Source: a virus (taxonomy: Duplodnaviria; Caudoviricetes). From it: 38,396 nt of DNA. Under the pieces are notes generated by a model. That model saw only the letters and a program-made list of their open reading frames with translations, was not told where the DNA came from and did not search any database. A program made the position numbers and the translations under genes. Positions 152 through 38,355 of this stretch are shown in pieces. Position 1 is the first letter of the stretch; every line of letters starts with the position of its first letter. The stretch is taken from the IMG/VR virus record IMGVR_UViG_3300012667_000552, positions 1-38,396 of that record. One strand, written 5' to 3'.

Positions 152-454
152 ATGAATAAAAAACAATTTAAAAAACTTTATTCTTTTTATAGAAAAATTA
201 ATCGCGAATTCAGAGAAAATCTCGAGAACTCAAATTATCCTTGCGGCTACGATGACATGATATGCGAAAATTTTTCAAGACAAAGAGAAAGTTGGTTGAA
301 TAAAAATAAAATAATTAAGCAAGTTTTAAATAATTTAGACTTACCCTACTTTTCTTTCAGTTATCAACCTATAACAGAAAATTTTGCTATCTATAGGCAT
401 CAAAACTCATGGGAAGAAAACGGAAAAATATTCTGGATAAAAAGGACGGTTTAA
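152..454 (+). CDS. Hypothetical early protein (start revised to 152)
   Basis: ORF track; same SD/stop/start junction (GAGGCGGTGTAAGATG) as at 1-18. Confidence 0.7.
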   Translation: MNKKQFKKLYSFYRKINREFRENLENSNYPCGYDDMICENFSRQRESWLNKNKIIKQVLNNLDLPYFSFSYQPITENFAIYRHQNSWEENGKIFWIKRTV

Positions 455-1482: not shown

Positions 1483-3816
1483 TTAGAAATTTGGTTGAAG
1501 TGCAAATTTTACCTTTTCGTATCCTCTTAAATTTTTACCTGAATCTTTGCGTTGAATGGATTTCATTTTGTAAAATCTGCTCAAGTCCTTACCAAACTTA
1601 ATAACAGTTTCATGTTTAGTCTTAGTGACTCCGCACCAAGCAACATAGTCAACGTAACAATCTCTGACTGGTATAAAATCTCTTTCATTTTGAGTCATGA
1701 TTACCTTCTCATCAAACCAAGCGCATACGGTATTTTGATCCATGCGATAATCGGAAATTGTTTGGTCGATAACCTGAGATGAGCTGAAGCCATTCTGGTC
1801 AACAAGGCGTTTATGAGCTTTTAAAACTTGGTTGAATATACCTGGAAGCTCGAAGGATAGTTTCTCTTCAATCTTGGGATCTGCCTTGCCCTTACCAAAA
1901 TAAGCATCGAATGGGACGATGATCAACCGCCGGATAAATCCTTCACTGAAGTCGGACATTTCTGGAAGCTCGTTACACGCCATAACAAGTTTGGTTTTAT
2001 TGGAAACGACGTTGATCGGTTTCTTATAAATTTCTCTGGCCATATAAGATCCTCCGGCGGATAAAACTTTAAACCATGATGAATCATCGAGAGATTTTAC
2101 CGGCGTTTCTTCTGCCACGTTGAAGAGTTTACCAACAAGATAAGCACGTTTGTATTCCTGGTTTAATTCATTAAGCATAATGGATGAATAAGCTTGAGGA
2201 CCGGCGAGTTTCTTTAATACTGATAAGAACGTGGATTTACCGTTGGAACCTTCACCACTGAGCATAAGTGCCTTGTGATAAATGTACGGCATCCCAGAAA
2301 TTGAGTAAGCCATATATTCCATGAGGACGTTTTGAAGTTCCGTTCTTCCTACGGTGATTTCTGCCAGGAAGTTATCAAAGACTGGTGAAGTCGCCGCAGG
2401 AGAATAGTCAAATGGAAGACAGTATTTAAATCCATACTTTTTATCATGAGAAGTAAACTCATGGGTTATTACGTCAATGACTCCATTGGCGAGATTGATT
2501 TTATTTTCCGATTGTTTATCAAACCAGTCTTCTGAGACTACGTTTGTTCTAAGGACTAGAGCAAGAAATTCTTGGACGTTTGAGTTACTTGGTTTAGGGA
2601 CGAAGTTATCTTGGGCAAACGCCTCAACATAAACGCTCTCAAGTTCCCTCCAAAGAGGTGCCTCATAGATCCAAACGGTCCCCGAAGGAGTACAAACATA
2701 TTGGTATTTCTTTTGGAAGTATCTTCTGAGATCCTCGTATGCCGGTTTAATTGGTTTAGGGATGCCATTTTTATCTGGACCGATTTCCCAAAATCCTGAT
2801 CCGGCGGTCTTGATATATTCTGGACCTTTTAAAAGAATCGGTGAAGTCACTTTATTATAATGGGGACAAGTCCGACATTTATCTGATATAGAATCAATGT
2901 TTTGGCAAGTTCTTGGTCCGGAAGCTGCCATTGCCTTAGCTAGTTTGGATTCGGTGTCTTTGTGTGAATAACCTGGATGCCCACTAGACATAGTGTGAGC
3001 AAGTTTGTTTCCGTTATCCAAGTGACCTACAATAGACAAGGCCGCATACCATTCAGGTTCAGAGACTTCTGTGGGAGAGCTAAAATTCCATTCAAGGAAT
3101 TTACACTCTTTTAGGATGTAGTCTGAGTCGGGAGTTGGGAACGCTCGAAGTGAGCTACTATCTATGGATTCTCCGGCCTGAGTTGTAGCGGCCTCGCCTA
3201 GTAGGTTACTAAATGAATGAAGCTTGTAATTGCTGTTTAATAAAACACAATTTGTATCTTCATATTGAATTGCTTTTCCTTTGGGGCAACGGTTGATTGT
3301 ACCAGGAAGTCTAAGAGTACCAGATACTCTGAAAACCGCAGGATCAAGTTTCCCTGAGAGCGATGAAGCCTTAAGTGCAGCTTGAATCTGATTACATAAA
3401 GTCTTATAAGATTGTTTCAAGTCTGATAGTTCTTCACTGGAAGAAATTTCTTTATCAACTTCAAAAAGTAAGTGAAGCCCATGACCACTGGAGACTTGGA
3501 TGAATTGCTCCGGCGGAATATTTAACGTTTCACTAATGACAGCGATGTGACCGTCAAGATTTGTCTCTTCTATGTCGTCAATATCTATTGGTACAAGTGT
3601 TTGGGATTTAAATTGTCTCGGGGCATGATAGCAGTTAGCAGTAGTATAGTGAAGATTGTAATGCTCCTCTTTTGGAATCTCATTTAAAACTTCATCCAAA
3701 TTCTGAAGCATGACTGAGACTGAATCGAAGCGTGTTTCCAATAAAAGCTTATGAGCTTGTGACCATTTTTGCTGGTGATTATCGAAGTAGTCTCTATAAG
3801 CGATAATTTGAATCAT
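1483..3816 (-). CDS. Primase-helicase: AEP-type primase, Cys-containing accessory domain, D5/P4-like SF3 helicase
   Basis: DIDD and SSGHGLH AEP motifs, LRLPGTIN; Walker A GEGSNGKST, Walker B FNVAEE, motif C MACNELP, RRLIIVPF. Confidence 0.92.
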   Translation of the reverse strand: MIQIIAYRDYFDNHQQKWSQAHKLLLETRFDSVSVMLQNLDEVLNEIPKEEHYNLHYTTANCYHAPRQFKSQTLVPIDIDDIEETNLDGHIAVISETLNIPPEQFIQVSSGHGLHLLFEVDKEISSSEELSDLKQSYKTLCNQIQAALKASSLSGKLDPAVFRVSGTLRLPGTINRCPKGKAIQYEDTNCVLLNSNYKLHSFSNLLGEAATTQAGESIDSSSLRAFPTPDSDYILKECKFLEWNFSSPTEVSEPEWYAALSIVGHLDNGNKLAHTMSSGHPGYSHKDTESKLAKAMAASGPRTCQNIDSISDKCRTCPHYNKVTSPILLKGPEYIKTAGSGFWEIGPDKNGIPKPIKPAYEDLRRYFQKKYQYVCTPSGTVWIYEAPLWRELESVYVEAFAQDNFVPKPSNSNVQEFLALVLRTNVVSEDWFDKQSENKINLANGVIDVITHEFTSHDKKYGFKYCLPFDYSPAATSPVFDNFLAEITVGRTELQNVLMEYMAYSISGMPYIYHKALMLSGEGSNGKSTFLSVLKKLAGPQAYSSIMLNELNQEYKRAYLVGKLFNVAEETPVKSLDDSSWFKVLSAGGSYMAREIYKKPINVVSNKTKLVMACNELPEMSDFSEGFIRRLIIVPFDAYFGKGKADPKIEEKLSFELPGIFNQVLKAHKRLVDQNGFSSSQVIDQTISDYRMDQNTVCAWFDEKVIMTQNERDFIPVRDCYVDYVAWCGVTKTKHETVIKFGKDLSRFYKMKSIQRKDSGKNLRGYEKVKFALQPNF

Positions 3817-3850
3817 GTATAACCGTCCTTAAACATTGGGGTAGGGTTCA

Positions 3851-3880
3851 AGGTTAAATAAAGCTTGCAATATCCGTCAA
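3851..3880 (-). promoter_or_regulatory. Putative sigma70 promoter for primase-helicase
   Basis: TTGACG-18 nt-TAACCT on minus strand, overlapping the divergent promoter. Confidence 0.5.
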
Positions 3881-3893
3881 GGTATTTTAAAAT
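3865..3893 (+). promoter_or_regulatory. Sigma70 promoter for the candidate small RNA
   Basis: TTGCAA (3865-3870), 17 nt, TAAAAT (3888-3893). Confidence 0.7.
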
Positions 3894-3899
3894 TATTTC

Positions 3900-3972
3900 T
3901 GTGTGGTTCGTTGTTGTCCATACTCCACCGTCGGGGAAAGTTTCTCGTCCTTTCTGACTCCGGCGGTTTTTT
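3900..3972 (+). ncRNA. Candidate two-hairpin regulatory small RNA (anti-RBS)
   Basis: Own promoter; hairpin GUGUGG/CCAUAC; second hairpin CCGUCGGG-GAAAG..CUUUC..CUCCGGCGG plus U tract; loop region complementary to phage AAAGGACGA RBS motif. Confidence 0.6.
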
Positions 3973-3992
3973 ACAATCCCAAAAATTTAGCA

Positions 3993-4021
3993 TTGACCTT
4001 TTAAAAGTATTGATAGATGCT
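3993..4021 (+). promoter_or_regulatory. Possible promoter for XRE/replication operon
   Basis: TTGACC-17 nt-GATGCT (weak -10). Confidence 0.35.
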
Positions 4022-4051
4022 TGCGGTATAGCTTTCAACAAAGGACACAAA

Positions 4052-4315
4052 ATGAGAATTATCAATCGAAAAGTTTCCGCATTAATTTTAGCTGAGAGAT
4101 CTAAGCTAGGTTTAACTCAAAAGCAATTAGCAATTAGACTTGGATTAAGAAGCGGTCAATACGTCCATAATATAGAGAAACTTCAATGCAATTTTCCGCC
4201 AAAGAAAATAGCGAAGCTATCCTTGGCATTAAGTATCCCGCTGGAGAAAATTAAATATGCCATGATGGAAGATTATATTGAAGCGGTTAAATCCGAAATC
4301 GAGAAGTCTCTGTGA
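4052..4315 (+). CDS. XRE-family HTH transcriptional regulator (start revised to 4052)
   Basis: RSKLGLTQKQLAIRLGLRSGQYVHNIE HTH_3 pattern; AAAGGAC RBS at 4040. Confidence 0.88.
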   Translation: MRIINRKVSALILAERSKLGLTQKQLAIRLGLRSGQYVHNIEKLQCNFPPKKIAKLSLALSIPLEKIKYAMMEDYIEAVKSEIEKSL

Positions 4316-4464
4316 AGACCGCAGGAGTTTTAATTCTATTGGCCTTATCATATTTAATTGTTGCCAGGTTATATTTTATTTATGGTTACAACGAAGCGCA
4401 GTTTGATAGAGAGGTTGCCAATAAGAAATTATTAGAATGTTTGGAAGTTATATCTACTAAGTGA
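4312..4464 (+). CDS. Small membrane protein, 50 aa (MKTAGVLILLALSYLIVARLYFIYG...), not in ORF track
   Basis: GTGA overlap with XRE stop; hydrophobic N-terminus. Confidence 0.55.
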   Translation: MKTAGVLILLALSYLIVARLYFIYGYNEAQFDREVANKKLLECLEVISTK

Positions 4465-4490
4465 CAATTGAAGTCACATATTGGAGATTT

Positions 4491-4901
4491 ATGAACGATA
4501 AAGATAAAGAAGCGTTTGATGGTTGGTGGAACAGGGCTGCTTACAGCGGTAGCCCTTATAAATGGGATAAAGATAGCTTCATCTATTTTGAACTTCTTAA
4601 TACATGGCAAGCCGCTTGTGATTATAAACATAAAGAACTTGAGCAGAAACTTCAAGACTACGAATCAGACTGGATTAAAATGCGAGACATTGCTGAGGAG
4701 ATGCAAGCTGAAAATGCAAAGCTAAGAGAGTGTTTAAAGTTTACTGTTTATGCCGCTGAGTATTTATTTAAGCCTGATGAAAAGCTTGCTGATGGATTAT
4801 TTCCTACAAGCTACTTTACGCTTTCGTATGAAGGAGATCTTGATCTTATAGAAAAAACTAAATATGCCAGACAAGTATTAAAAGAATTGGAGGATAAATG
4901 A
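4491..4901 (+). CDS. Hypothetical phage protein with coiled coil (start revised to 4491)
   Basis: GGAG SD before ATG 4491; ORF track. Confidence 0.7.
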   Translation: MNDKDKEAFDGWWNRAAYSGSPYKWDKDSFIYFELLNTWQAACDYKHKELEQKLQDYESDWIKMRDIAEEMQAENAKLRECLKFTVYAAEYLFKPDEKLADGLFPTSYFTLSYEGDLDLIEKTKYARQVLKELEDK

Positions 4902-5047
4902 TTTTTTACAACGAGAAATACGGATTAGTTGAAATTGTAATTTACGGTTTAGGAGAAGAAATATTAACTGCGTTTAACGAAGAAAATGAATTATGTATTA
5001 GCGTAGATTATTTTAAAGACACTTATGAATTTATTGGATTTATTTAA
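4898..5047 (+). CDS. Small acidic hypothetical protein, 49 aa, not in ORF track
   Basis: GGAGG SD and ATGA overlap with the upstream stop; fills the operon gap. Confidence 0.6.
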   Translation: MIFYNEKYGLVEIVIYGLGEEILTAFNEENELCISVDYFKDTYEFIGFI

Positions 5048-5048
5048 A

Positions 5049-5480
5049 ATGAAATTCTTAAATAACACTGACAGTATTTCAATTGATGCGGCCATCAAAG
5101 ACGCTGAAACATTGTTGCAACCAAGTTCCAACATATTTAAAGACATATTAAATAAAAATGACTGGAAGTACAATTCCGGCAGCGGCTCCGAAATAGTCAC
5201 AAAACTTTTAATACCTAAGACTCCAATTGATGTTTATTATTACAAGCCAATTTATCCCTGGTCCGCTGCTCTGGGATACTTTGACGGCGAAGCAATCCAT
5301 ATAAATTATCGCAAGCTTTTAAATCATACTGCGCTTGTCGGATTGTTACTTCATGAGTACGCTCATTACTGTGGTTTCAATCATGGCATTGGCCCTTCAA
5401 GAAATTATAAAAGCAAAGATAAAATCTTGCACTCGGTTCCATATTGGTTATCAGAAAATGTTGGGAAATATTTATGCTAA
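5049..5480 (+). CDS. Metzincin-type zinc metallopeptidase
   Basis: HEYAHYCGFNH matches HExxHxxGxxH; start may be 5025 or 5049. Confidence 0.75.
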   Translation: MKFLNNTDSISIDAAIKDAETLLQPSSNIFKDILNKNDWKYNSGSGSEIVTKLLIPKTPIDVYYYKPIYPWSAALGYFDGEAIHINYRKLLNHTALVGLLLHEYAHYCGFNHGIGPSRNYKSKDKILHSVPYWLSENVGKYLC

Positions 5481-5587
5481 TTCACGATAGATGCGCCGCC
5501 TTTGAAGCTGAGATCAATAGACTTAAAAAAGAAATAGAAAGGCTAAAAGCTGAGATAGAAAAATTAAAATCCAAGAGTGTGTCATAA
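5474..5587 (+). CDS. Small coiled-coil peptide, 37 aa
   Basis: EINRLKKEIERLKAEIEKLK heptads; overlaps the upstream stop. Confidence 0.45.
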   Translation: MLIHDRCAAFEAEINRLKKEIERLKAEIEKLKSKSVS

Positions 5588-8699: not shown

Positions 8700-8716
8700 T
8701 TTCCAAAAGGACGAGA

Positions 8717-10432
8717 ATGAAGAGTTATGTTTTTGACATTGAGGCGGACGGTTTACTTGATTCAGTAAAAAAGATCTGGTCAATTGTCTTGCACGATACA
8801 GAGACTAATGAATTATTCTCGTACTTTGGTGACAGTCTGCACGTCGGAATAAACAAGATACAGGAAGCCGACGTGTTGATTGGTCACAATATTATTTGCT
8901 TCGATGTTCCCGCTCTTGAAAAATTATATGGCATAAAAATTAAAGCTAAACTCTACGATACTCTTCTTCTATCCCGCATGGTATGGCCTGAGATTGCCAT
9001 AACCGCCGATGCCAAAAAGAAATATAACATACCTTCTCACTTGGTAGGCAGTTACTCACTCGAAGCCTTTGGTTATAGGGTAGGACATTTTAAATTAGAG
9101 CATACTGACTGGAGCGAATGGACTCCAAAGATGCAGGAATATTGTGAGCAGGACGTAAAAGTTAATACACGCTTATGGAAGTTAATCCAAGATAAACTTC
9201 CATCCGAGCAAAGCATTTATATCGAAACAGAGTTTCAAAAATATATCCATTTGCAAGAGCAGCATGGAGTTTATTTTGACGTGGACAAGGCCCTCTCTCT
9301 ACACAAACCACTACAAGAAAGAATTGTGGAGATCACAAGCAATTTAAGAGTTATCATTCCTGCCAAGGAAATAAAGCTTAAGAAGAGTATAAAATATACA
9401 GAGTTTAATCCTGGTAGTAGGCAACAAATAATTGAGTTTCTTTGCCATAAATATAACTGGAATCCTACGGTGTTTACGGAGAAAGGGAATCCCCAATTGT
9501 CAGAGGAAGTACTGGAAGCTTTACCTTATCCAGAGGCGAAGCTGTTTTCAGAATACTTTAAGACTCAAAAACTTCTTGGAATGTTATCCGACGGAGACAA
9601 GTCTTGGCTAAAGTTCGTTAAAGATGGAAGACTCCATGGAAGAGTTATTACAATCGGTGCGGTCACTGGACGCTGTACTCATAGCTCTCCTAACCTGGCA
9701 CAAATTCCAAGTGCTAGATCCTTTATGGGAAAGGAAGTGAGAGAGTTATTTTATGCCCCCGCAGGATACAAGATGATCGGGACCGACGCCAGTGGACTAG
9801 AGCTTCGATGTTTCAGTCATTACCTATTCCCATACGATAGCGGAGCGTACGCCAATGAAGTGCAATTCGGAGATGTTCATACTAGAAACCAGCAAGCCGC
9901 AGGACTAGAGACAAGGGATCTTGCCAAGACGTTTATCTATGCTCTTCTATATGGAGCAGGGGACGCAAAGCTTGGAAGCATTAAGTCATCCGGAACACAG
10001 GACCAGTTAAAGCAAGTTGGGTTTACCATGAGACATAGTTTTATGGACAAGGTTCCAGCTTATAAAAATCTAGTAAACTCAGTTAAACTTGCTATACAAA
10101 CCAGGGGTAAACAACTAATAGGAATTGATGGACGAACACTCCAGATAAGACACGAACACGCTGCCCTAAATACACTACTCCAGAACGCCGGTGCGGTAGC
10201 CGTTAAACTAGCTACGGTAAAATTTAGAGACAATATGATTAAAGCAGGGATAGAATTTGATCCATGCTTGCATATCCATGACGAATGGGAAATTTACGTG
10301 GACGAAAATGAATCAGAAAAAACAAAACAGATAGCCGTTGCATCCATCAAGGAAGCAGGGGAAGAATTAAACTTTAAATGTCCGCTAACAGGCGAGAGTC
10401 GAAGCGGCCAAAACTGGTATGAGGTACACTGA
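8717..10432 (+). CDS. Family A DNA polymerase with 3'-5' exonuclease (T7 gp5-like)
   Basis: FDIEADG, GHNIICFD, YCEQDV exonuclease motifs; DASGLELR, RDLAKTFIYALLYG, HDE. Confidence 0.97.
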   Translation: MKSYVFDIEADGLLDSVKKIWSIVLHDTETNELFSYFGDSLHVGINKIQEADVLIGHNIICFDVPALEKLYGIKIKAKLYDTLLLSRMVWPEIAITADAKKKYNIPSHLVGSYSLEAFGYRVGHFKLEHTDWSEWTPKMQEYCEQDVKVNTRLWKLIQDKLPSEQSIYIETEFQKYIHLQEQHGVYFDVDKALSLHKPLQERIVEITSNLRVIIPAKEIKLKKSIKYTEFNPGSRQQIIEFLCHKYNWNPTVFTEKGNPQLSEEVLEALPYPEAKLFSEYFKTQKLLGMLSDGDKSWLKFVKDGRLHGRVITIGAVTGRCTHSSPNLAQIPSARSFMGKEVRELFYAPAGYKMIGTDASGLELRCFSHYLFPYDSGAYANEVQFGDVHTRNQQAAGLETRDLAKTFIYALLYGAGDAKLGSIKSSGTQDQLKQVGFTMRHSFMDKVPAYKNLVNSVKLAIQTRGKQLIGIDGRTLQIRHEHAALNTLLQNAGAVAVKLATVKFRDNMIKAGIEFDPCLHIHDEWEIYVDENESEKTKQIAVASIKEAGEELNFKCPLTGESRSGQNWYEVH

Positions 10433-11349
10433 TGAATGTTTTGTCATTGTTTGATGGAATGTCTTGCGGTCAAATTGCTCTTAAGAAACTAAACATAAGT
10501 GTTGATAATTATTTTGCTTCTGAAGTTGATAAGTATGCAATAAAAGTTAGCTCTGAAAATTTTCCTAACACAATTTATTTGGGCGATGTGGCAAAGATTG
10601 ATTTCAAATCATTGCCTAAAATTGATCTACTTATTGGCGGCTCACCATGCCAAGGATTCAGCTTTGCAGGGAAGCAACTAAATTTTAATGATCCAAGATC
10701 AGCATTATTTTTTGAATTTGTCAGAGCTCTAAAGGAAACAAAGCCAAAATATTTCATGCTTGAAAATGTTGTAATGAAACAAGAATTTAAAGATGCAATA
10801 AGTGAACAATTAGGAATTAATCCAGTAAGAATTGAGAGTTCATATTTTTCTGCCCAAAAAAGATCTAGATTGTATTGGACTAATATTGAAATTGAACCAT
10901 ATCAAGACAAGGGAATTGTCCTATCTAATATAATTGAGCATGGTTTAGTTGATAGAGACAAATCTTACTGCATTGATGCTAACTATTTCAAAGGAACTAA
11001 TCTTGAACAATATTTGACTAAAAAAAGAAGGCAAGTTGTTTTTGAAAAATCAGATAAACCAATTAGGTTGGGAGCTCTATCAAAATCAATGGGTAGTCGA
11101 GTTTATCATGAGTCAGGTAAATCAATTTGCCTTTCGGCGCAAGGTGGTGGATTGGGAGCCAAAACAGGCTTGTACCATGATGATTATTGCATCAGAAAGC
11201 TAACAGTTTTAGAGTGCAAAAGACTCCAGACTGTACCAGATGATTACCTAATGAATGTGTCCAACACTCAGGCCTATAAGATGCTTGGAAACGGATGGAC
11301 TGTGGACGTTATTGCACATATCTTAAAAGGAATAAAACATGGATCTTAA
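10432..11349 (+). CDS. C5 DNA cytosine methyltransferase
   Basis: LFDGMSCG, GGSPCQ, ENV, QKRSR, GNGW motifs. Confidence 0.95.
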   Translation: MNVLSLFDGMSCGQIALKKLNISVDNYFASEVDKYAIKVSSENFPNTIYLGDVAKIDFKSLPKIDLLIGGSPCQGFSFAGKQLNFNDPRSALFFEFVRALKETKPKYFMLENVVMKQEFKDAISEQLGINPVRIESSYFSAQKRSRLYWTNIEIEPYQDKGIVLSNIIEHGLVDRDKSYCIDANYFKGTNLEQYLTKKRRQVVFEKSDKPIRLGALSKSMGSRVYHESGKSICLSAQGGGLGAKTGLYHDDYCIRKLTVLECKRLQTVPDDYLMNVSNTQAYKMLGNGWTVDVIAHILKGIKHGS

Positions 11350-28517: not shown

Positions 28518-28528
28518 GGATGCCTCTT

Positions 28529-36467: not shown

Positions 36468-36496
36468 TTGACAACCGTCGGAGTAATTGATATAAC
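36468..36496 (+). promoter_or_regulatory. Strong early sigma70 promoter
   Basis: TTGACA-17 nt-TATAAC with extended TG; CCGTCGG in the spacer. Confidence 0.8.
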
Positions 36497-36534
36497 TCTT
36501 CGTGTCAGACAACAAAACAACAAAGGATGAATCA

Positions 36535-36753
36535 ATGAAAGCTCTTACTCTTCTTATTTTGGTAACATTTTCTCTTAATATTTTCGCAGTAAGCATTGAC
36601 ACCGCCGGATTAGTTGATGTTGAGATTCAAGCAGTTGACGAGGCCACAACTGCCCAACTTATTGAGCTCGAACAATGTGTAATTGACAGTAATGAGACTA
36701 AAATCAATGAGACATCATGTCTTAATGAAGTTTTAGGGGATGTTCACAACTAA
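36535..36753 (+). CDS. Small exported protein (start revised to 36535)
   Basis: MKALTLLILVTFSLNIFA signal peptide; AAAGGATGA RBS; Cys pair. Confidence 0.75.
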   Translation: MKALTLLILVTFSLNIFAVSIDTAGLVDVEIQAVDEATTAQLIELEQCVIDSNETKINETSCLNEVLGDVHN

Positions 36754-36814
36754 TTTTTTATTGGAATAACAACAATTTGACTCAATTCCGAGTCAATTTA
36801 TAAAAGGACGAAAC

Positions 36815-37096
36815 ATGAAATCACTTGTAACAATCTCTCTTCTTATGGTTATCTCTCTTAATTCTATGGCATCTTCCGAAGTTCAGTTGAAAAATTGTCT
36901 TCAAAAGACTTTGACCGCCTCATCATTGGAATTAAATAGATCGGAAAAACCGTCGGATGTTTTAAAATCAATGAACCAATCAATTAAACAATGTAAGGAT
37001 GAAGTTAAATCATTGGTTAAGGCTGAAAAAGCAGCTGCCAAAAAGAATAAATTAATTGAAGCTATCAAGAAACTACAAGCAAAATTAAACGCTTAA
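36815..37096 (+). CDS. Small exported helical protein
   Basis: MKSLVTISLLMVISLNSMA signal peptide; AAAGGACGA RBS; Cys pair. Confidence 0.78.
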   Translation: MKSLVTISLLMVISLNSMASSEVQLKNCLQKTLTASSLELNRSEKPSDVLKSMNQSIKQCKDEVKSLVKAEKAAAKKNKLIEAIKKLQAKLNA

Positions 37097-37132: not shown

Positions 37133-37150
37133 TATTAAAAGGACGATGCA

Positions 37151-37345: not shown

Positions 37346-37368
37346 AACAACAAACAAAGGACGAAACA

Positions 37369-38355
37369 ATGAAAACAACAAAAAAAGCAGCAAAAAAACC
37401 AAAATTTAAACAGGTTGAGGGTGAGATTGGTAAGGTTGAAAAAATCAAGTCTAAACATGAATTAATCACTGATAAAATTATTGAATCATTAGAGTCTAAT
37501 GTTATTCCTTGGAAAAAACCCTGGACTGCTTTAAGTCCTAAAAATTTAAGTTCAATGAAAGAATATAGGGGAATCAATCACATATTGCTTTCTATGATCC
37601 CGACAAAATACCCTTATTTCTTAACCTTTAAACAGGCTAAAGACCTTGGCGGCATGGTTTTAAAAGGATCAAAAAGTGTACCAGTGTTTTTTTATTCCAT
37701 GATTGATAAAAACGAAGATAAACCGAAAGACGATGACCACAAAACAGGGAATACTTTTTGGTTCATGAAACAATATTCAGTTTTTACCTTGGAACAAATT
37801 GACGGCATTAAATTAGATCAATTAATTGATCCAGTGATTGATTTTACGCCGGTTATGACTGCCGAAAATTTAATAAATGCTTTTTTAGATTCTCAAGGTT
37901 TAAAGGTTTACCCCGCCCAAAACGCCGCCTATTCACCGAATCAAGACCATATCGTTATGCCGCAAAAGGATCAATTCCATAGTGTAGACGCTTATTATTC
38001 TACAATCTTTCATGAAATAATCCATTCTACAGGCAGCGAAAAAAGATTAAAGCGGGCGGGTTTTTCAATTGGTGAATATCATCGTTTCGGATCTAAGGGT
38101 TATGCCTTTGAAGAACTTGTGGCCGAATTTGGGGCCGCTATGTTGGCATCATACTGCGGCGTCGATACTTCACTAGAATCGGGGCAAAATGCCGCATATA
38201 TTAAATCTTGGATGAAAAACATTAAGGAAGATCCAACAATCTGTTATAAAGCTGCATCTAAGGCCCAAGCGGCAGTTGATTTTATCTTAAAAGAGGCGGG
38301 CTTTAATGTTTTTGGACTGGCCGACGATGAAACGTCAAACAATGAGGCGGTGTAA
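37369..38355 (+). CDS. ardC: ArdC-family antirestriction protein (ssDNA-binding N-domain plus zincin-like MPTase)
   Basis: IPWKKPW, YRGIN, FLTFKQA..GG.V.KG, YYSTIFHEIIHSTG..RL.R, YAFEELVAE, AAYIKSW. Confidence 0.93.
   Translation: MKTTKKAAKKPKFKQVEGEIGKVEKIKSKHELITDKIIESLESNVIPWKKPWTALSPKNLSSMKEYRGINHILLSMIPTKYPYFLTFKQAKDLGGMVLKGSKSVPVFFYSMIDKNEDKPKDDDHKTGNTFWFMKQYSVFTLEQIDGIKLDQLIDPVIDFTPVMTAENLINAFLDSQGLKVYPAQNAAYSPNQDHIVMPQKDQFHSVDAYYSTIFHEIIHSTGSEKRLKRAGFSIGEYHRFGSKGYAFEELVAEFGAAMLASYCGVDTSLESGQNAAYIKSWMKNIKEDPTICYKAASKAQAAVDFILKEAGFNVFGLADDETSNNEAV

Follow-up and report, generated by a model that had tools for sequence, protein, structure and literature searches.

The region between the divergently transcribed primase and XRE-type genes of an IMG/VR phage genome (IMGVR_UViG_3300012667_000552) raises the question of whether a short structured RNA made there could control, by base pairing, the translation of a dispersed set of genes that share one type of ribosome-binding site (RBS). 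A preliminary description, based on the sequence alone, had proposed such an RNA. The proposal was followed up computationally in the window, by which we mean the whole stretch of DNA analyzed (38,396 nucleotides), and in related phages.

Genome organization and relatives

The window is a complete podovirus-type genome of 38.4 kb with a 55-nt terminal repeat. Its early block runs from 36.5 kb through the genome end to 1.25 kb and comprises small unknown genes, ardC, and a resolvase gene. The D5-type primase-helicase gene ("P4 family phage/plasmid primase-like" in JGI naming) is leftward, as is the virion block, and the rightward replication block contains the XRE gene, a SNF2-type helicase, polymerase A, and a C5 methylase. 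A 200-aa resolvase-type protein is the sole recombinase found, and no antirepressor family was detected among the 47 window proteins scanned.

No DNA match to positions 3000-5500 was found among cultured phages (blastn against INPHARED), and the nearest cultured relative of the polymerase is that of LUZ100 (44%). Near-identical DNA is present in freshwater and lake metagenome runs. Neither a close primase relative nor a prophage was found in 185,579 bacterial genomes (47 loci; best segments at most 42%, partial). The nearest Atlas clusters of the XRE protein are mostly from Bdellovibrionota, which gives no more than a hint at the host; the host is probably a member of that group.

Three relatives carry the intergenic unit at the same place and, together with the window, make up the clade discussed below. 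G001 (38.3 kb; primase 63% identical) came from a capsid search, and L194 (1.7 kb, 63%) and G024 (42.3 kb, 54%) came from primase-profile searches. Primase relatives with 47-98% identity, mostly from Logan, ENA, and JGI data, number 33 (P0004-P0036). An XRE query in IMG/VR returned four unrelated loci, and single-primase and helicase queries returned nothing new. Two DNA pattern scans (13 and 4 stretches) recovered G001 only; the other stretches have no nearby primase or XRE relative and were taken as chance. In the capsid relatives G003 and G005, there is neither space between the genes nor a hairpin at this place, and their putative early genes have AGGAG-type RBSs (judged by eye).

Several other features of the genome were observed. 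The C5 DNA methylase gene (10432-11349, after the polymerase) is missing from that place in G001. The first two early genes (36535-36753 and 36815-37096) encode small proteins that are without a Pfam or PHROG family, are kept in G001, and have hydrophobic, signal-peptide-like N termini (by eye). Such starts are unusual for early phage genes, and the products are possibly superinfection-exclusion or envelope proteins. In the N-terminal codons of the primase gene (3641-3724), about 26 substitutions are common to the lake relatives X1, X2, and X7 relative to the window, and the flanks are nearly identical, so this patch is a mosaic segment within the gene.

A small-RNA unit between the primase and XRE genes

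The sigma70-type promoter and the two hairpins followed by a U tract that had been described between the primase and XRE genes were confirmed (Table 1). Taken alone, the promoter is a 9/12 match, and 8 such sites occur in positions 3000-5000, compared with 6.0 ± 2.4 in shuffled sequence. Because the motif alone is not above the shuffle level, its support comes from conservation in the clade. The predicted primase promoter, which the preliminary description had overlooked, is interleaved with it on the opposite strand, and both overlapping promoters are kept in 4/4 clade members with different spacers.

Table 1. Positions of the predicted small-RNA unit, its neighboring genes, and the complementary ribosome-binding sites in the window
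Feature	Position	Strand	Remarks
Predicted primase promoter, TTGACG-18-TAACCT	3851..3880	-	TTGACN-18-TAnnnT in 4/4 clade members
Predicted sigma70-type promoter of small RNA, TTGCAA-17-TAAAAT	3865..3893	+	Both boxes kept in 4/4 clade members, spacers changed
Candidate small RNA, ~73 nt	3900..3972	+	Ends predicted from the U run and the -10 box
Hairpin 1 (6-bp stem, loop rich in G and U), a possible second seed	3901..3923	+	Weak pairing partner in the window
Hairpin 2, terminator-like stem, then U run 3967-3972	3927..3967	+	13-14 bp stems with other sequence in G001, L194, G024
Exposed 13-nt loop UUUCUCGUCCUUU, predicted seed	3941..3953	+	GUCCUUU invariant in 4/4
D5/P4-type primase-helicase	1483..3816	-	Divergent from small RNA
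XRE-type HTH protein	4052..4315	+	Downstream of small RNA
DNA polymerase A RBS, 12-nt perfect complement	8706..8717	+	Not kept in G001
AAAGGACGA, RBS of early gene 36815	36803..36811	+	G001 homolog carries AAAAGGACAA
AAAGGACGA, RBS of early gene 37151	37138..37146	+	
AAAGGACGA, RBS of ardC (37369-38355)	37356..37364	+	G001 homolog carries AAAAGGACAA
AAAGGATGA, 9 nt with one G.U, RBS of early gene 36535	36522..36530	+	G001 homolog carries AAAAGGACAA
AAAGGACGG, 9 nt with one G.U, RBS of early gene 456	441..449	+	
Primase RBS AAGGACGG, 7 Watson-Crick and 1 G.U	3823..3830	-	Perfect 11 nt in G001, 8 in L194, 7 in G024
XRE-gene RBS AAAGGAC, 7 nt complementary only	4040..4046	+	Sole target on a possible read-through transcript

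The candidate RNA is predicted to fold with a minimum free energy of -23.6 kcal/mol (z = -2.59; 2 of 200 shuffles were equally good). The complementary bases 3942-3953 had been placed in the loop plus the inner stem of hairpin 2; the bases themselves stand, but all 12 lie inside the 13-nt loop. This loop is predicted to be open both in the free RNA and in read-through RNA, with unpaired probabilities of 0.96 to 1.0 for 3941-3949 and 0.58 for 3950-3953. CUCG and CUUG both fit the YUNR/U-turn motif (PMC7430163, in part), which carries little information in a U-rich loop.

Hairpin 2 has diverged in sequence while its structure has been kept. When the stems are anchored at their ends, 12 of 14 positions pair in the window, and 13, 14, and 14 bp are formed in the relatives. 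Stem changes relative to the window convert U.G to C-G, G.U to A-U, and G-C to U.G or U-A, and in G024 a wholly different 14-bp stem surrounds an almost identical loop. A U tail is present on the + strand in 4/4, and own-promoter and intrinsic-terminator signals are kept throughout. RNAalifold on a MAFFT alignment, in which G024 is misregistered, gave 9 pairs only, one of them with a two-sided change. In a lake contig of ~93% identity, the only changes to the unit among those listed are A3927>U, accompanied by the insertion of one U, and U3931>C, which turns a U.G into a C-G pair; none falls in the loop. Four closer runs have no listed change over 3773-4047 where this stretch is covered. When 1.5 Mb from 100 sources was searched with a covariance model built on the four clade hairpins, the model recovered these hairpins and no others (next best E value, 0.058).

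Coding readings of the unit were rejected. No frame on either strand is open across the window, G001, L194, and G024, as expected of a base-pairing RNA, and a 134-aa extension of the XRE gene from a TTG start is interrupted by stops in G001. A search against Rfam, which the preliminary description had suggested, was run on the whole window (cmscan, 4227 families, E ≤ 1) and found no RNA family for the unit; the only hit was a chance match to CRISPR-DR53 at 28525. From these signals, 3900-3972 is very probably a gene for a non-coding RNA on the + strand.

Complements of the loop at early and replication gene starts

The word AAAGGACGA occurs five times in the window (both strands), compared with 0.28 expected from an order-2 Markov model; four copies are at gene starts and the fifth is the complement of the loop. 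The 12-nt complement at the polymerase RBS and the three 9-nt matches reported previously were exact, and the sites with wobble pairs at 441, 36522, 5652, 648-660, and 3823-3830 (minus strand) were as described. Complements of at least 9 nt were found at 4 of 53 own gene starts, whereas 31 other genomes or loci gave 1 among 1264 starts.

The complementary starts belong to one part of the gene repertoire. With hand-curated starts, complements of at least 7 nt were present at 7/24 early or replication genes versus 0/24 late genes (Fisher P = 0.005), complements of at least 9 nt at 4/24 versus 0/24 (P = 0.055), and complements of at least 8 nt, when G.U pairs were allowed, at 10/24 versus 3/24. 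The late genes have AGGAG- or GGAG-type sites.

Predicted duplex energies are modest, mostly -11 to -13 kcal/mol (about -12), with -18.0 kcal/mol at the polymerase. Only the polymerase (1/53 own starts) lies within the 1% tail of the starts of other genomes, the remaining targets having energies of -11.7 to -13.0. Ranking by duplex energy did not single out the own targets in the window (1/53) or in G001 (1/56); low P values for the GC-rich genomes L125 and L124 came about through composition and were given no weight for generality. Discrimination against host RBSs is not assured, because most of the duplex energies fall outside the 1% tail.

Most of the targets are on other transcripts, namely, that of the divergent primase and those of genes at a distance of 3 to 6 kb on the circle. 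There is no complement of at least 8 nt on the + strand within 200 nt of the unit, the nearest being a 9-nt match inside the XRE gene at 4175. Because most targets are on other transcripts and the neighbor in cis, XRE, is the weakest match, action in trans is suggested.

The loop of hairpin 1 had also been said to complement ACAACAA tracts beside several of the same starts. The tracts do exist (36509, 36517, 36769, 37347, and 37375), but the signal is weak: ACAACAA lies near 3/53 window starts versus 32/1264 starts elsewhere, and complements of at least 8 nt to the 5' part of the RNA are at background (2/53 own starts versus 55/1264). The order expected for a two-loop contact is found in the window at the ardC site only (+6). 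In G001, hairpin 1 has 10- and 11-nt complements to the start-codon regions of ardC and its upstream neighbor (2/56 versus 3/1261 at 10 nt). These lie downstream of the Shine-Dalgarno (SD) sequence, as an antiparallel two-loop contact requires, and would give a second contact colinear with that of the hairpin 2 loop. Judged by complementarity, loop-1 pairing is weak in the window and better in G001.

Covariation of the loop and the RBS word

The loop of G001, UUAACUUGUCCUUUU, has UUGUCC where the window has UCGUCC. The word AAAGGACAA is present in eight copies in G001 (seven starts and the loop complement) and is absent from the window, and AAAGGACGA is absent from G001. All seven sense copies in G001 are at starts, those of the primase, XRE, ardC, and four small early genes. 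Between the window and G001, a loop C paired with a target G thus becomes a U paired with an A. The predicted targets common to both phages are the primase and XRE genes, ardC, and a pair of small early genes. The polymerase, which had been presented as the headline target, loses that position, its RBS in G001 having no match.

Each of the two loops matches starts of its own phage more often than those of the other. At 9 nt or more, the window loop matches 4/53 own starts, 0/56 G001 starts, and 1/1024 starts of 24 further genomes; for the G001 loop, the corresponding numbers are 7/56 own starts, 1/53 window starts, and 5/1024. Of 15 target starts, which were picked by motif, 13 have a lower duplex energy with the loop of their own phage than with that of the other. 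The covariation anticipated in the preliminary description was therefore found in G001, as one two-sided change seen at 4 plus 7 sites. Only one base position is involved, and the sites at which it recurs cannot be counted as independent, two of the G001 leaders being near-duplicates; the P value is about 0.05 to 0.06 in each 2x2 Fisher test. None of the relatives keeps the RBS motif with the complementary loop lost. The G024 loop has 0/66 own starts at 9 nt or more and 1 at 8 nt or more, yet it reaches at least 9 nt at five window starts. Its matches to its own starts are of 7 to 8 nt only, and covariation of seed and target is not seen in this phage.

Recurrence in distant phages

A first set of distant loci consisted of 36 of 42 loci collected with the primase N terminus; 2 duplicates, 3 loci with doubtful starts, and 1 with short upstream DNA were dropped. 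The longest complement between the divergent region (45-300 nt) and the own primase RBS had a mean length of 6.94 nt, compared with 6.25 nt for the RBSs of other loci (permutation P = 0.0006) and 6.35 nt for shuffled regions (0/300 shuffles). Complements of at least 11 nt were present in 3/36 loci, with 0.09 expected from shuffles, and the signal is carried by G001 (11 nt), L122 (13 nt), and L179 (16 nt) at the primase RBS. A further locus, L207, has a 13-nt complement to the RBS of the next gene. The complements in these four loci and in L204 are located in hairpin loops, and the loop and word pairs of the distant phages are unlike those of the window. A terminator-like hairpin is absent at 18/36 loci of this set.

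A scan based on structure only gave 245 hairpins in 32 genomes or loci, of which 8 match at least two own starts; 4 of these 8 are divergent from a primase gene. The composition of the own genome inflates own matches about 2-fold (32/9073 versus 395/213500 for the hairpins assigned to genes, among which the hairpin of the window itself was wrongly placed). One cis-overlap artifact each was removed from the own-start counts of L117 and L207.

The test of hairpins that had been fixed in advance was negative: in 25 new distant loci (29 less 4 duplicates) there were five hairpins, matching 0/161 own starts compared with 4/3709 others. The looser region test on the same 25 loci, which was not fixed beforehand, was positive and gave a mean of 7.24 versus 6.15 nt (P = 1e-5; shuffles, 6.38 nt), and 5/25 loci reached at least 9 nt with 1.0 expected, one of the two longest complements being poly-T. 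On these results, the arrangement recurs in a minority of these phages; it is not universal.

The region test pointed to another type of seed, which is single stranded and precedes a terminator-like hairpin (L396 and kin). The small-RNA-like units of this second family, in L380, L388, L390, and L396, share the seed GUUAUUCUGC; they lie 80-130 nt from the primase start on its upstream side and are divergent from it. The seed is a 13-nt perfect complement to the 5' leader of the own primase gene in L396, with 8 nt in L390. In L326 (G026; positions 3100-3260), the phage of L179, two tandem hairpins have near-identical stems and different loops, and only the first matches own RBSs.

Alternative explanations

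The hairpin might act only in cis, as a leader or terminator of the XRE operon whose loop pairs with the RBS of the next gene in read-through RNA, the distant words being duplicated expression cassettes. The near-duplicate early leaders of G001 would fit such duplication, and complements to the loop are found at the RBS of the next gene in G001 (10 nt), L207 (13 nt), and L179, as well as in L204 when G.U pairs are allowed. We consider this explanation improbable, since the XRE RBS is the poorest match in the window (7 nt, against 9 to 12 nt at distant genes), G001, L122, and L179 have their best match at the RBS of the divergent primase gene, and a separate promoter-like TTGAC box lies between the hairpin and XRE in 3/3 aligned sequences.

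A general anti-SD RNA that damps translation in the host, and incidentally in the phage, with the word being merely a strong SD sequence for this host, has a low probability as well. Small RNAs whose anti-SD loops sit on variable stems are known from bacteria (NfeR1/alpha-r14; PMC10746234, in part). The invariant part of the loop, GUCCUUU, complements an SD-like core, the duplex energies at own starts are mostly no better than those at G-rich starts of other genomes, and G024 has the loop without the extended word. Against this stand the late genes of the same phage, none of which (0/24) reaches 7 nt with its AGGAG- or GGAG-type site, and the base that differs between the window and G001, which changes jointly in the loop and in the targets.

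Proteins may also recognize words of this kind, either as DNA operators or as CsrA-type RNA sites. If AAAGGAC(G/A)A were such a word, the hairpin could have arisen incidentally from two CCGNCGG palindromes. The two outer arms of the stem are in fact copies of this palindrome (24 in the window versus about 1.8 expected), and a minus-strand copy of the hairpin would show GGA in its loop. The stems extend past the palindrome to a length of 13-14 bp, however, and G024 keeps the hairpin and loop with one CCGNCGG genome-wide. In addition, 11/11 sense copies of the word in two phages are at the RBS position, the sole antisense copy being that of the loop; the + strand carries the U tail in 4/4; and transcription from a minus-strand promoter-like site (3920-3892), which is not conserved in G001, would begin beyond hairpin 2. 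It is thus distinctly improbable that a protein accounts for the word.

CCGNCGG is a feature in its own right, being ~13-fold overrepresented in the window (24 copies) and in G001 (34) versus about 2 expected, as well as in L194 and G002. It is not overrepresented in G024, G003-G005, or G013. Sites in the window include 1392, 1429, 3928, 3960, 11863, 35712, 35722, 35996, and 36475; that at 36475 is in the spacer of an early promoter, and in G001 paired copies form hairpins just before early RBSs. It is possible that the palindrome is an operator or a site for a host protein. The presence of an XRE protein is not a full explanation, as G013 has an XRE relative and no sites. A direct repeat, GATAGGTCAAC, flanks the early block and the resolvase gene (window, ~1438 and ~36004; also L086 of G001, 8641), each time just after a CCGNCGG copy, and the repeats are candidate recombinase sites.

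Chance pairing of a pyrimidine-rich terminator loop with purine-rich RBSs is very improbable given the 4/53 versus 1/1264 starts and the reciprocal change in G001, even though ~3% of non-cognate pairs of region and RBS reach 9 nt and the promoter alone is not above the shuffle level.

Comparison with known regulatory RNAs

The closest parallel to the proposed trans-acting RNA is c4 of phages P1 and P7 (RF01695 in Rfam; PMC2864571, in part), a 77-nt antisense RNA (PMC8546580, in part). c4 acts in trans, with complements displayed in loops that bind around the RBS and block translation of ant mRNA, and P1/P7 heteroimmunity rests on sequence-specific c4 pairing (PMC12197685, in part). The window unit is similarly a short phage RNA with predicted loop-displayed RBS complements that would act in trans, and the base exchange between the window and G001 resembles the basis of P1/P7 heteroimmunity. 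c4 is a processed RNA of the immI operon with ant as its target, whereas the window unit has its own promoter and terminator signals, two hairpins, and several unlinked targets, the primase included, that share one RBS word. To judge from its sequence, the unit would work like P1 c4; with no Rfam match, no antirepressor operon, and its own promoter and terminator-like end, it is not a member of the c4 family.

The CI RNA of P4 is processed from a leader under its own control and causes premature transcription termination via seqA and seqC (PMC4825925, in part). Like CI, the window RNA is a phage small RNA proposed to hold replication genes off by base pairing. Unlike CI, it would be transcribed away from the primase gene, and its complements are ribosome-binding sites. 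Membership of the P4 CI type was rejected because the list of complements of at least 8 nt has no flanking seqA- or seqC-like complements on its own transcript.

NfeR1/alpha-r14 and AbcR have conserved single-stranded anti-SD seeds, variable stems, and many targets, and act by RBS occlusion, NfeR1 acting on ntrB (PMC10746234, in part). The window RNA resembles them in its anti-SD seed, displayed in the loop of a hairpin with a variable stem, and in its many predicted targets. Their seed is an ultraconserved canonical anti-SD directed at host mRNAs, whereas that of the window has a noncanonical extension that differs between phages and tracks the RBS word of each phage. The motif CCUCCUCCC (PMC10746234, in part) is not in the loop, which has the core GUCCUUU with a variable 5' neighbor, and there is no Rfam hit; assignment to the host-type RNAs was rejected.

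The window RNA overlaps none of its targets, unlike sar, OOP, and aQ. The sar and OOP RNAs are encoded opposite their targets. The same holds for aQ, and P22 sar, lambda OOP, and aQ each lower the synthesis of a developmental regulator through a single target mRNA (PMC12197685, in part).

Proposed mechanism and implications

Our preferred reading, to which we assign a probability of about 0.65, is that the small RNA is a trans-acting translational repressor of the primase and early genes that share the RBS word, as loop complementarity and its covariation suggest. Host RNA polymerase would transcribe the RNA from the promoter at 3865-3893 and would stop at the RNA's own terminator. The open loop would then nucleate on the SD region of primase and early mRNAs in trans and exclude the 30S subunit. 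The loop would span an SD-like AAGGA core and a phage-specific extension (CGA in the window, CAA in G001), a combination that would give the phage's own starts preference over those of late and host genes. To judge from the G001 sequence, hairpin 1 may make a further contact, at the start codon.

To judge from their spacing, the interleaved promoters would allow one polymerase to exclude the other, so that the RNA and the primase mRNA would be made alternately. Accumulation of the RNA would damp the synthesis of primase and of early and anti-restriction proteins. The likely role would be early shutoff during lytic growth or a hold on replication in a quiet state.

A stronger version, in which this single RNA is the main repressor of the whole early/primase set or the immunity determinant, with a role like that of a CI protein, is unlikely. 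It would imply a private ribosome-binding code, in which the early and primase genes are served by one noncanonical RBS word; such a code is doubtful. Equally tentative is the further suggestion that the base beside the SD core (CGA versus CAA) would set immunity specificity between relatives and that, in distant lineages, one entire word would have replaced another.

No account of this RNA, or of a phage small RNA with a shared-RBS regulon, was found in the literature covered, most subscription papers lying outside that coverage. The loop word is absent from three supplementary files of Fremin 2023 (PMC10690425), and the RNA may still be among the 10,000 candidates of that study. In those parts of the papers examined that deal with them, the phage antisense RNAs c4, sar, OOP, aQ, and CI have one target or operon each. 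The present findings suggest translational wiring of a whole phage regulon, in which the target sites of many genes have been homogenized to one word that tracks one loop.

The window and G001 constitute a natural compensatory pair, which makes a direct reporter test possible without culturing the host. If the proposed regulation is true, the loop and its word would provide a compact orthogonal pair of RBS and small RNA for synthetic biology, and early regulons, and perhaps immunity groups, could be read from sequence alone in uncultured phages.
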